From NCBI RefSeq assembly GCF_045037415.1, contig NZ_CP173438.1: a DNA stretch of 64,000 nucleotides; one strand, written 5' to 3'. Below the pieces are notes generated by a model, which saw nothing but the letters and a program-made list of their open reading frames with translations, was not told where the DNA came from and searched no databases. Shown in pieces: positions 16,407 to 19,186 of the stretch (the first letter of the stretch is position 1; every line of letters begins with the position of its first letter). This DNA is from Escherichia coli (GTDB taxonomy: Bacteria > Pseudomonadota > Gammaproteobacteria > Enterobacterales > Enterobacteriaceae). Made by a program: the position numbers and the translations under genes.

Positions 16407-16479
16407 AAAAGGCCACTCGTGAGTGGCCAAAATTTCATCTCTGAATTCAGGGATGATGATAACAAATGCGCGTCTTTCA
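16407..16479 (-). ncRNA. micA: MicA (SraD) small regulatory RNA
   Basis: Reverse complement reads GAAAGACGCGCATTTGTTATCATCATCCCTGAATTCAGAGATGAAATTTTGGCCACTCACGAGTGGCCTTTTT, matching the MicA sequence as I recall it, with intrinsic terminator. Confidence 0.85.
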
Positions 16480-17062: not shown

Positions 17063-17070
17063 TCAGTTTA

Positions 17071-17107
17071 AGCAGAAGAGGCCGGGCTGGTGAAAACACC
17101 GCCCGGC
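17071..17107 (+). terminator. luxS intrinsic terminator
   Basis: 7-bp stem gccgggc...gcccggc followed by TTTTG. Confidence 0.7.
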
Positions 17108-17112
17108 TTTTG

Positions 17113-18225
17113 TTACCTGTCAGTCATCCGATATTCCACGCTATGTGCTTCATCAGGTTGAGGAACTTCCAGCCTTGAGGCCATCCGCATCACGACCGCT
17201 TCAGGAACTGCATACTCGCGTCTGGCATTTTGCTGGTTCCATTGCGCCCATGGCACTTCCAGATAAACGATTTTTACTCGTGCGCCGTAAGCCGTAAACA
17301 GACTGATGAGCTGGCTGCGCAGCTGGCGGGTAATGTTCGTTGCATTCCAGATGAACGGCTTTTTCTGGCGTAAAAAAACGCGCGCCTCTTCTTTTGCCTG
17401 TTGCACAATACGCCCGGTGGCGGTTTTGTCGTCCGGACTGGCATTGATTCGCCGCCGCATATCATCAAGGCTGATAACGTCCATTCCCTGGCACTGTTCA
17501 CTGATATAGCGATCTTTGCCCATACCCGGTAAGCCACACAGCAAAATAACCTCAAAAGGTTCAGCCTCCCAGGGAACAAAATCAGGAGAACTTTGCTCAT
17601 GAGTCAGGTAGTGCCAGCGTGCGGAATCAGAAACGAACGGGCGCATTTTTCCCCAGCATTGTTGCTCATGGCAAAACAGCTCGAACAGATCGATGCGTTC
17701 CAGCATTGATTGCTGATCCGGGCTTTGGCGACCAAGCAGATCGGCACGAGCAAGCAAAGCGAGCAGACGCGTGTCGATGCGCATTGCAGCCGTGAGCAAC
17801 AAACGCTCCGGTTCCGGACGTTCCAGTAACCATAGCGGTAACCCATGCAGACGCACCAGTGCAACAATTTGCTCGCGCAGCACGAACGGCGTTGGGATAT
17901 CGCGCCATAAAATTTGTCGAGCCGTCAGTTCGCCCCGACGAGCATGACCAGGAGACTGAATACGTCCGTTTTCCTGCACGGTAGTGCTGCGCTTTTCAAC
18001 ATCATGCAATAACGCCGCCGCCCATAAAACTTCCTGCTGTTGAGCGGGGAGTTGCTGGAATTCTGGCAGAGTAATGAGGGCGTTAAGCACCATTTCGGTA
18101 TGTACGCCGACGTCGCCTTCACCATGATGCTCAGGGTCTTGTGGCGTGTGATGCATCTCCTCAACCCAGCTAAAACGCTGACGTAGCGCCGACCAGCGTT
18201 TATCGTCGGTAAGTTGCCAAATCAT
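17113..18225 (-). CDS. Predicted bifunctional RNA/DNA end-healing enzyme: N-terminal HD phosphohydrolase plus C-terminal P-loop polynucleotide kinase (HD-Pnk-like)
   Basis: 370 aa; HD motifs [12 protein letters not shown] and LLHDVEK (H74-D75); Walker A-like GLPGMGKD at 17512-17535; GGAG SD; ATGA overlap with upstream ligase gene; no counterpart at this locus in K-12 as I recall it. Confidence 0.6.
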
Positions 18226-18929
18226 GACTGTTCTCCATAAACGAACTCATGGGCCATCCGCGCCCGTTGCCAGTGGCGTTTCCAGTGCACAGTGGTTTTG
18301 ACATGATTTTTGCGCACATACTTGAAGACGTTATGCGAAAAGTCAGCGACAGAAAACGCATCATGATTTCGGCTGACAATGCCTTCCAGCGTACAGGGTT
18401 GACAGGTTTGCGTATCCCAGGGATCGAATGTGCCGCGCGCATTGGTCAGCGCCAGAAAATCACGTTGCCAGCTTTTTTCATCATTCCCCGGCTGCGGGCC
18501 GGAGATTTCGGGAACGCAGGGGAAATCAAACAGAGCGGCGTAAAACTGCACCTCTTCCCAGCTCAGCCACATATCCTGGCAGCGAACGGCAAACAGGTAA
18601 AAGTCCTGTTCCAGCGCGCGGTATTCAATGGAATGAACGGCGTAGAGATTTTCACCAAACAACTCCAGGTTGCCGAGATCGTTTTTCAGCAGTTGCCAGC
18701 GTTGGCGAATTTTATAGGTCCATGCCGACTGCGTAGGCGTGGCATGGGAGCGGGCAAACACGCCGTAGCGGTTAAGGCAGTTATTTTCGCCATCGAGTTT
18801 TTCTGTGTGCACCAATTGCGTGATGGTCTGTAAATCCTGCCAGTAATCGGTGTTAATGCGGTCATCGCTGGTGGTGCCTGGAGAGAAGGGGTAATGCCAG
18901 GTTCTCCCGTATTTACGTTGGGTATTCAT
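18222..18929 (-). CDS. Predicted ATP-dependent RNA ligase, minimal nucleotidyltransferase domain
   Basis: 235 aa; motif I KLDG (K44, codons at 18789-18800), motif III-like FGE, motif IV LEGIV, motif V KYVRK. Confidence 0.55.
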
Positions 18930-19150
18930 AATAATCCATTATTTTGTGTGTAATAAATGTACGCCCGCGAGGGTGCGAGTTTTGGGGTTAAAAGAAAAAT
19001 GTGAGTATCACCCGCGAAAGCGAGGGCGAAGGAAAAAGAGAATTAACAACCTGAGCGAATGCTCAGAACCGGCTAATGGTGAATGGAAGAGTTTGGGGCG
19101 GCGAAAAGATACACCGAATGAGTGTATAAAACAACCGTTTGCAGAATGAG

Positions 19151-19179
19151 CAAATAAAAAGGGAGCCGCAGCTCCCTTT
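19151..19179 (-). terminator. emrB intrinsic terminator
   Basis: On minus strand: hairpin gggagctgcggctccc followed by TTTTTATTTG, directly after emrB stop. Confidence 0.7.
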
Positions 19180-19186
19180 GGCAACC

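Follow-up and report, generated by a model that had tools for sequence, protein, structure and literature searches.

The stretch of DNA analyzed here, which we call the window, is a 64,000-nucleotide segment of an Escherichia coli chromosome (contig NZ_CP173438.1). It carries gshA, the small RNA MicA and luxS, and then emrB, emrA and emrR on the opposite strand. Between luxS and emrB lies a pair of genes, the second of which is the subject of this analysis. A single open reading frame (ORF) fills positions 17113-18225 exactly, stop codon (17113-17115) included, and encodes on the minus strand a 370-aa product that RefSeq names only 'ATP-binding protein' (WP_000638136.1). The gene immediately upstream, also on the minus strand, is annotated in RefSeq as 'RNA ligase family protein', and its stop codon shares 4 nt (ATGA) with the ATG of the 370-aa ORF. 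An earlier interpretation made from the letters alone, the sequence-only reading, had taken 17113-18225 for a fusion of an HD phosphohydrolase with a kinase. This is borne out by the single ORF, by matches to AAA_33 and HD, and by the fold matches of a structural model. Overlooked at that stage were the minus strand, the overlapping ligase gene and the HD-Pnk family, which has been described since 2017. Because its homology to the Deinococcus radiodurans protein DR_B0098 is full-length, and because the ligase layout and the fold matches agree, we assign the ORF product to this known family of end-healing enzymes, as its E. coli member. The features on which the argument depends are as follows.

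17113..18225, minus strand: HD-Pnk gene, predicted bifunctional end-healing enzyme (ORF; Pfam AAA_33 and HD; DR_B0098 homology; AlphaFold2 model)
17596..18225, minus strand: predicted N-terminal HD phosphoesterase domain, approximately residues 1-210, all-helical (residue conservation, NCBIfam, Foldseek)
17116..17562, minus strand: predicted C-terminal P-loop polynucleotide kinase domain, residues 222-370 (AAA_33, PDB sequence and fold matches)
17512..17535, minus strand: Walker A GLPGMGKD, residues 231-238, with Asp238 directly after the P-loop lysine (position K+1), normally Ser/Thr (translation, CthPnk alignment)
17455..17472, minus strand: SLDDMR, residues 252-257, with Asp254 as predicted general base and Arg257 as predicted acceptor-phosphate contact (equivalents of CthPnk Asp38 and Arg41)
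17335..17349, minus strand: WNATN, residues 293-297, at the C-terminal tip of strand beta3 (CthPnk alignment, model)
18222..18929, minus strand: 235-aa ATP-dependent polynucleotide (RNA) ligase-like nucleotidyltransferase (Pfam RNA_ligase PF09414, E = 1.6e-27)

Translation places the HD signature at residues 33-43, LLHDVEK at 72-78 and GLPGMGKD at 231-238; all three motifs, and the numbering of D238, had been quoted correctly before. Pfam assigns AAA_33 to residues 226-355 (E = 1.6e-31). The Pfam HD match is weak (E = 0.017), as are the NCBIfam HDIG and CCA-enzyme HD matches, and the NCBIfam model for CCA addition and repair matches residues 11-104. However, the candidate HD metal ligands H34, H74-D75, H94, H127 and D162 are each kept in 158-161 of 161 diverse homologues, and this family-wide invariance of the putative metal-binding His/Asp set places the predicted HD domain well above chance. 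The 161 sequences, which serve for all residue counts below unless stated otherwise, consist of 150 representatives of 50%-identity clusters, drawn from a profile search of 1.84 billion proteins, and 11 others. An AlphaFold2 model of the protein has a predicted local distance difference test score (pLDDT) of 92.7 and a predicted template modeling score (pTM) of 0.92. Foldseek matches the HD half of this model to the class II tRNA nucleotidyltransferase 3wfp. The class II CCA-adding enzyme has an HD domain like the N-terminal half of the E. coli protein, which, in contrast, lacks the nucleotidyltransferase head and has its HD domain fused to a kinase. The HD domain of the E. coli CCA enzyme is a metal-dependent 2',3'-cyclic phosphodiesterase and phosphatase.

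For the kinase half, the best PDB matches by sequence and by fold are the same: CthPnk (4gp6), mammalian PNKP and T4 Pnk (1ly1, 2ia5). The bacterial Pnkp model TIGR04075 of NCBIfam matches the kinase segment only, at positions 9-137 of 851 and with 32.7 bits against a cut-off of 750, and the E. coli protein does not have the kinase, binuclear metallophosphoesterase and ligase of the Pnkp-Hen1 type in one polypeptide. CthPnk itself shares its polypeptide with a binuclear metallophosphoesterase and a ligase domain and has Hen1 as its partner, whereas the E. coli protein has a predicted HD 3'-healing module and a separate ligase. The T4 system follows the same logic, with a 5'-kinase and 3'-phosphatase (Pnkp) acting ahead of the ATP-dependent RNA ligases Rnl1 and Rnl2, and its kinase matches in fold. 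T4 Pnkp differs in that a DxDxT acylphosphatase lies C-terminal to the kinase, the P-loop is a canonical GKS and there is no HD domain.

Homologues number in the thousands. Two clustered-database searches returned 2234 and 4150 matches, and 1251 family representatives lie at E <= 1e-30. The E. coli protein is 55-59% identical to members from Bacteroidota, and aligns over both domains with DR_B0098 (30% identity, E = 4e-34). To look at gene neighborhoods, 80 homologous regions were fetched from species-representative genomes, among them Dyadobacter, Emticicia and Larkinella. The first of the family, the HD-Pnk of Runella slithyformis, was reportedly described by Munir and Shuman in 2017, and DR_B0098 by Schmier and Shuman in 2018. 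Both share the order of the E. coli protein, with the HD phosphoesterase at the N-terminus and the P-loop Pnk at the C-terminus, and in Runella the ligase gene is immediately upstream and overlapping, as in E. coli. The Runella protein is described as a DNA/RNA end-healing enzyme, is reported to be an active kinase and is encoded beside a ligase gene (PMC6097658). The D. radiodurans protein is likewise an end-healing enzyme and is needed for resistance to ionizing radiation (PMC6300522).

The relatives also differ from the E. coli operon. The Runella pair is flanked by Tpt1 and methyltransferase-HIT genes that the E. coli operon lacks (PMC6097658); with an approximate KptA/Tpt1 query, Tpt1-like ORFs were found in only two loci, neither in a Runella-like order. 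The Deinococcus enzyme, unlike that of E. coli, has a canonical GKS and WDAT and an insertion of approximately 40 residues between the domains, and its operon on plasmid pMP1 has a TIGR02452-family gene between ligase and HD-Pnk (L082, 2500-5203). On the same plasmid of strain R1, a second 'RNA ligase (ATP)' gene lies 2 kb downstream on the other strand (L082, 7338-8366). Shortened proteins 99-100% identical to the E. coli one also occur in the databases (P0023, P0036 and P0053, of 288, 262 and 252 aa, with 78-216 member sequences each); these 252-288-aa forms could be pseudogenes or contig-end fragments.

The P-loop of the protein is non-canonical. HMMER alignment against PDB sequences sets GLPGMGKD residue for residue on CthPnk GSSGSGKS, and FIWNATN on VVDATN, confirming both that the region is a P-loop and that, as the sequence-only reading had it, an Asp stands where Ser/Thr is normal. 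CthPnk (4gp6, 4mde) is the best solved match, and the catalytic spacing of the two proteins is identical, with Lys21, Ser22, Asp38, Arg41, Asp78 and Thr80 corresponding to K237, D238, D254, R257, N294 and T296 at a constant offset of +216. Asp238 occupies the Ser/Thr position held by Ser22, and the canonical GxxxxGK[S/T] pattern is absent. Asn294, which ends strand 291-294 of the model, takes the position of Asp78, and the canonical Walker B Asp is absent as well.

Neither change is peculiar to E. coli. Residue 238 is Asp in 116 of the 161 sequences, Asn in 15 and Ser or Thr in 29, and residue 294 is Asn in 134. In the first 120 homologues and in the 80 loci, GK is almost always followed by Asp and in a few cases by Asn, and the first Gly of the motif is sometimes replaced by Ala. 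An Asp after the P-loop lysine is the norm of the HD-Pnk family and its majority state. It had been suggested beforehand that an Asp conserved and active in characterized homologues would be unremarkable. The conservation part of that statement stands, with Asp or Asn in 131 of 161, so that the residue is a family trait rather than an oddity of this gene. Two P-loop residues that are nearly universal elsewhere are both replaced here, which makes the pair an unusual exception in nature. Because nearly all examined Bacteroidota members are of the GKD type and Runella belongs to the Bacteroidota, the P-loop of the Runella HD-Pnk is in all likelihood of the GKD type too. A literature search on GKD-type Walker A motifs found nothing relevant.

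The two positions change together. Their joint states (residue 238 first) are Asp/Asn in 115 sequences, Asn/Asn in 15, Ser/Asp in 18, Thr/Asp in 5 and Ser/Asn in 4, with single cases of Ser/Ser, Asp/Ser, Gly/Asp and Ser/Glu. Sequences with GK[S/T] mostly keep an Asp at 294 (18 Ser/Asp and 5 Thr/Asp among 29). The association is strong by Fisher's exact test (p = 1e-24, a statistic that ignores part of the phylogeny). On a neighbor-joining tree built without the two columns, each position switches class approximately 15-17 times and the combined state approximately 18 times; the counts for the single positions are close to that for the pair, which indicates that 238 and 294 change jointly. Nearly half of the canonical-type sequences (14 of 30) have a non-canonical nearest neighbor. 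In plasmid and jumbo-phage relatives GKD or GKN goes with the Asn of WNATN, while the GKS proteins of Deinococcus and Methylorubrum carry Asp there (WDAT). The pairing is unbroken in an independent set of 39 full-length proteins from viral contigs, which are Asp/Asn in 18 cases, Asn/Asn in 4, Asp/Ser in 1, Ser/Asp in 12 and Thr/Asp in 4, without mixed states. The coupling is clear despite the caveat on phylogeny.

The gene next to HD-Pnk gives the second part of the argument. The ligase gene is immediately upstream and on the same strand in all 80 loci. The motifs of the E. coli ligase are intact, with KxDG in EKLDGEN (E43-K44-L-D46-G47), E93, E182-G183, K203 and R206. Its closest solved relative in a profile search is the RNA ligase of Naegleria gruberi (E = 1.2e-5). 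A phmmer match in the PDB to a mollusc hemocyanin (E = 3.5e-9) was rejected as an artifact of summed weak repeats. A GKN subclade, comprising a Pseudomonas aeruginosa plasmid (L083), Variovorax (L084) and Ralstonia (L089), has WN[AS]T[NH] and a ligase of approximately 285 aa with an extra insertion; the P. aeruginosa plasmid pair has IS21 elements on its flanks.

By analogy with the characterized Runella and Deinococcus enzymes, the HD domain would use a transition-metal cofactor to take off 2',3'-cyclic, 3'- and 2'-phosphates, and the kinase domain would move the gamma-phosphate of a nucleoside triphosphate (NTP) to a 5'-OH polynucleotide end. The healed 3'-OH and 5'-PO4 ends would then feed the small ATP-dependent ligase of the translationally coupled upstream gene, and the two proteins would form a two-gene 'heal-and-seal' repair module. 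We consider it likely that the ORF encodes the E. coli HD-Pnk, a bifunctional enzyme with an active kinase and a rearranged metal site that works as a heal-and-seal pair with the ligase.

How a kinase might work with this P-loop can be approached through its relatives. In CthPnk, Ser22 is the sole enzymic Mg2+ ligand and is essential, Asp38 is the general base, and the acceptor 5'-nucleotide is bound by Asp38, Arg41 and Thr80 (PMC3902929). In the kinase of fungal Trl1, the P-loop Thr is the sole direct metal ligand and two Asp residues, one of them the general base, contact metal-bound waters (PMC5728400). P-loop NTPases in general are considered to have a strictly conserved pair here, in which the Ser/Thr that follows the P-loop lysine is hydrogen-bonded to the Walker B Asp (PMC9599734). 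In canonical polynucleotide kinases, Mg2+ has no protein ligand other than the Ser/Thr hydroxyl, and the metal-bound waters are held by the Asp at the beta3 tip. We propose that in HD-Pnk the carboxylate has been relocated to the P-loop, as Asp238, and the beta3 position neutralized to Asn294. Such a swap would leave the metal surrounded by one carboxylate and one hydrogen-bonding partner, as before, and would preserve the local charge. Asp238 would probably bind Mg2+ directly, and in the Asn/Asn forms the Asn carbonyl may take that role. The usual exceptions to Ser/Thr at K+1 are Gly in nucleoside monophosphate (NMP) kinases, adenylate kinase-like enzymes of the GKG type that are natural exceptions in the same way (PMC9599734). 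However, these use Gly and a water as metal ligand, whereas HD-Pnk has Asp or Asn at this position, coupled to loss of the Walker B-type Asp.

Two alternative readings of the kinase domain bear on this proposal. The sequence-only reading had left open whether the Asp marks a variant metal-binding arrangement or a degenerate kinase. In the latter case the domain would be kept as a pseudo-kinase that binds NTP or nucleic acid, and the protein would act mainly as an HD phosphoesterase. Both of the 'strictly conserved' P-loop NTPase positions are indeed altered, Asp for Ser/Thr and Asn for the Walker B-type Asp; replacing either residue usually kills other P-loop enzymes (PMC9599734), and the essential role of CthPnk Ser22 points the same way (PMC3902929). 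However, all the other catalytic residues, among them D254 as general base and the arginines of the lid and acceptor site, are near-invariant (K237 in 161, D254 in 160, R257 in 159, T296 in 154, R303 in 160 and R336 in 160 of the 161 sequences). A dead domain would not retain its catalytic residues, and this invariance counts against degeneracy. The two changes are also tightly coupled and appear to have interconverted repeatedly with Ser/Thr plus Asp, the sign of a compensated functional pair. Moreover, GKD with WN is the majority form, and the Runella prototype, which is reported as an active kinase (PMC6097658), shares its phylum with the nearest non-enterobacterial homologues of the E. coli protein. 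A degenerate kinase is therefore very unlikely. The domain might instead be an active P-loop kinase that phosphorylates a different acceptor, such as a protein, a nucleotide or some small molecule, like further members of AAA_33. This family is generic, and the Foldseek matches include PFKFB 6-phosphofructo-2-kinases, a sugar kinase and PSTK at E values of approximately 2e-4 to 1e-3. Against this, the top matches by sequence and by fold are all polynucleotide kinases, the acceptor residues of CthPnk are kept with identical spacing as D254, R257 and T296, the gene is obligately linked to that of a polynucleotide ligase and an HD domain sits in the same protein. We regard a non-polynucleotide acceptor as most improbable.

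Of the two earlier options, then, the variant metal site is favored and the degenerate kinase disfavored, on the conserved catalytic residues and the covariation of 238 and 294. Since the catalytic residues are near-invariant among sequences of no more than approximately 50% mutual identity, and since the 238/294 pair appears compensated, the kinase very probably works, its metal-site carboxylate having been relocated. Several points weigh against this reading and the heal-and-seal role. Changes of the Walker B Asp to Asn usually abolish catalysis in P-loop NTPases (PMC9599734), and Asn294 taken alone would argue for inactivity. The characterized Deinococcus enzyme is of the GKS/WD type and not of the GKD type. 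The proximity of D238 and N294 is deduced from homology and secondary-structure position. The covariation statistics are only partly corrected for phylogeny, and a deep neighbor-joining tree can inflate the count of switches. Finally, the Runella ligase self-adenylylates, yet it sealed no standard 3'-OH/5'-PO4 substrate tested (PMC6097658).

A more specific form of the proposal is that Asp at K+1 with Asn at beta3 is a functional, polarity-swapped version of the near-universal [Ser/Thr]-Asp module, which has switched to and from the canonical form many times inside a single family; here we consider the chances evenly balanced. To what is known of the family, the present analysis adds that Asp/Asn238 and Asn294 are tightly coupled and that this coupling evolved repeatedly, which turns an odd P-loop into a specific hypothesis. 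If the swap is true and undescribed, the family would be a natural experiment on whether the module serves as metal ligand only or also as a proton relay (Kozlova et al. 2022), and ready-made sequence pairs exist for probing its function.

With regard to the natural substrate, RNA is favored. RtcB, an RNA ligase, is encoded beside the pair in 19 of the 80 loci, and in Bacteroides and Serratia the order is RtcB-PrfH-LIG-HD-Pnk, where LIG is the ligase. In these RtcB(-PrfH) loci the additional genes are directly upstream and in the same orientation (B. fragilis, L044, 3204-5265; L011; Serratia, L031, 3477-5212; L058), and two different RNA-sealing routes are clustered there. The pair is also found in large phages. 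Full-length HD-Pnk is encoded by 39 viral contigs from IMG/VR, mostly of 100-600 kb (L094-L129, L131, L168, L170), and in approximately 24 of these a PF09414-type ligase gene lies no more than 4 kb upstream. Both states of the P-loop are represented, with the 238/294 pairing unbroken as described above. The uncultured phage LR756500 (462 kb, L086) carries HD-Pnk as well. Large phages with such a pair recall the tRNA repair by T4 Pnkp and Rnl1. We favor RNA on three grounds: RtcB and PrfH recur beside the pair, the partner belongs to an RNA-ligase family, and large phages carry the pair. The RtcB/PrfH clustering suggests a role in mending RNA cut by ribotoxins.

The alternative is that the module repairs DNA breaks, namely the 3'-phosphate and 5'-OH DNA ends left by oxidative or radiation damage, as was proposed for Deinococcus. 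There, HD-Pnk and its operon add to resistance against ionizing radiation and mitomycin C (PMC6300522), and the Runella enzyme is described as healing both DNA and RNA ends (PMC6097658). Set against these observations are the partner's place in the RNA_ligase Pfam family, with an RNA ligase as nearest solved relative, the RtcB neighbor, sometimes with PrfH, the carriage of the pair by large phage genomes, and the lack of a LexA box upstream of the E. coli operon. We find DNA repair unlikely as the natural role, though a good deal less so than either of the alternatives for the kinase domain. Only the substrate is at issue here, and this alternative agrees with the enzymology of the favored explanation, an active bifunctional HD-Pnk paired with the ligase.

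The gene is largely explained: it is the E. coli representative of a family that was described in 2017-2018, and its P-loop is in the majority state. The name HD-Pnk/LIG can replace the uninformative RefSeq labels and gives the pair a testable function. In E. coli both genes lie on a discrete segment, and the remaining features of the locus are as follows.

17068..19185, no strand assigned: segment with both genes, 2118 bp, in place of which K-12 MG1655 has a 57-bp emrB-luxS spacer (blastn)
17077..17111, no strand assigned: GC-rich hairpin between the convergent luxS and HD-Pnk genes (ViennaRNA)

The segment carries its own hairpin terminators. The hairpin between luxS and HD-Pnk has a predicted energy of -26.0 kcal/mol on the plus strand, where it is followed by TTTTG, and of -22.3 kcal/mol on the minus strand (ViennaRNA), and is probably a bidirectional terminator. 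A scan for consensus promoters upstream of the ligase gene gave nothing convincing. A search of the same upstream region found no LexA box, and SOS control of the operon was ruled out on that ground. Neither protein matched the PADLOC anti-phage models, and an origin as a defense system was dismissed.

The segment is present in 999 of 5426 complete E. coli genomes, always as a single chromosomal copy and never on a plasmid. Carriers include E. coli W and O145:H28 RM12761, while K-12 lacks it. Klebsiella, Kosakonia, Phytobacter and Enterobacter have the LIG-HD-Pnk pair at the same emrB/luxS site (L009, L020, L021, L062, L063, L070), and no repeats were found bordering 17068-19185. A recent insertion of a mobile element was rejected, given the lack of bordering repeats, the absence from plasmids and the shared site in four other genera. 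This suggests that the emrB/luxS site is old in Enterobacteriaceae and that the segment was lost repeatedly in lineages such as K-12. This uncharacterized two-gene repair module for nucleic acids occurs in approximately 18% of complete E. coli genomes, as well as in many other Enterobacteriaceae and gut Bacteroides. Next to the segment, the MicA small RNA lies between gshA and luxS as it does in K-12 (16407-16478, minus strand; Rfam RF00078, 83.9 bits).

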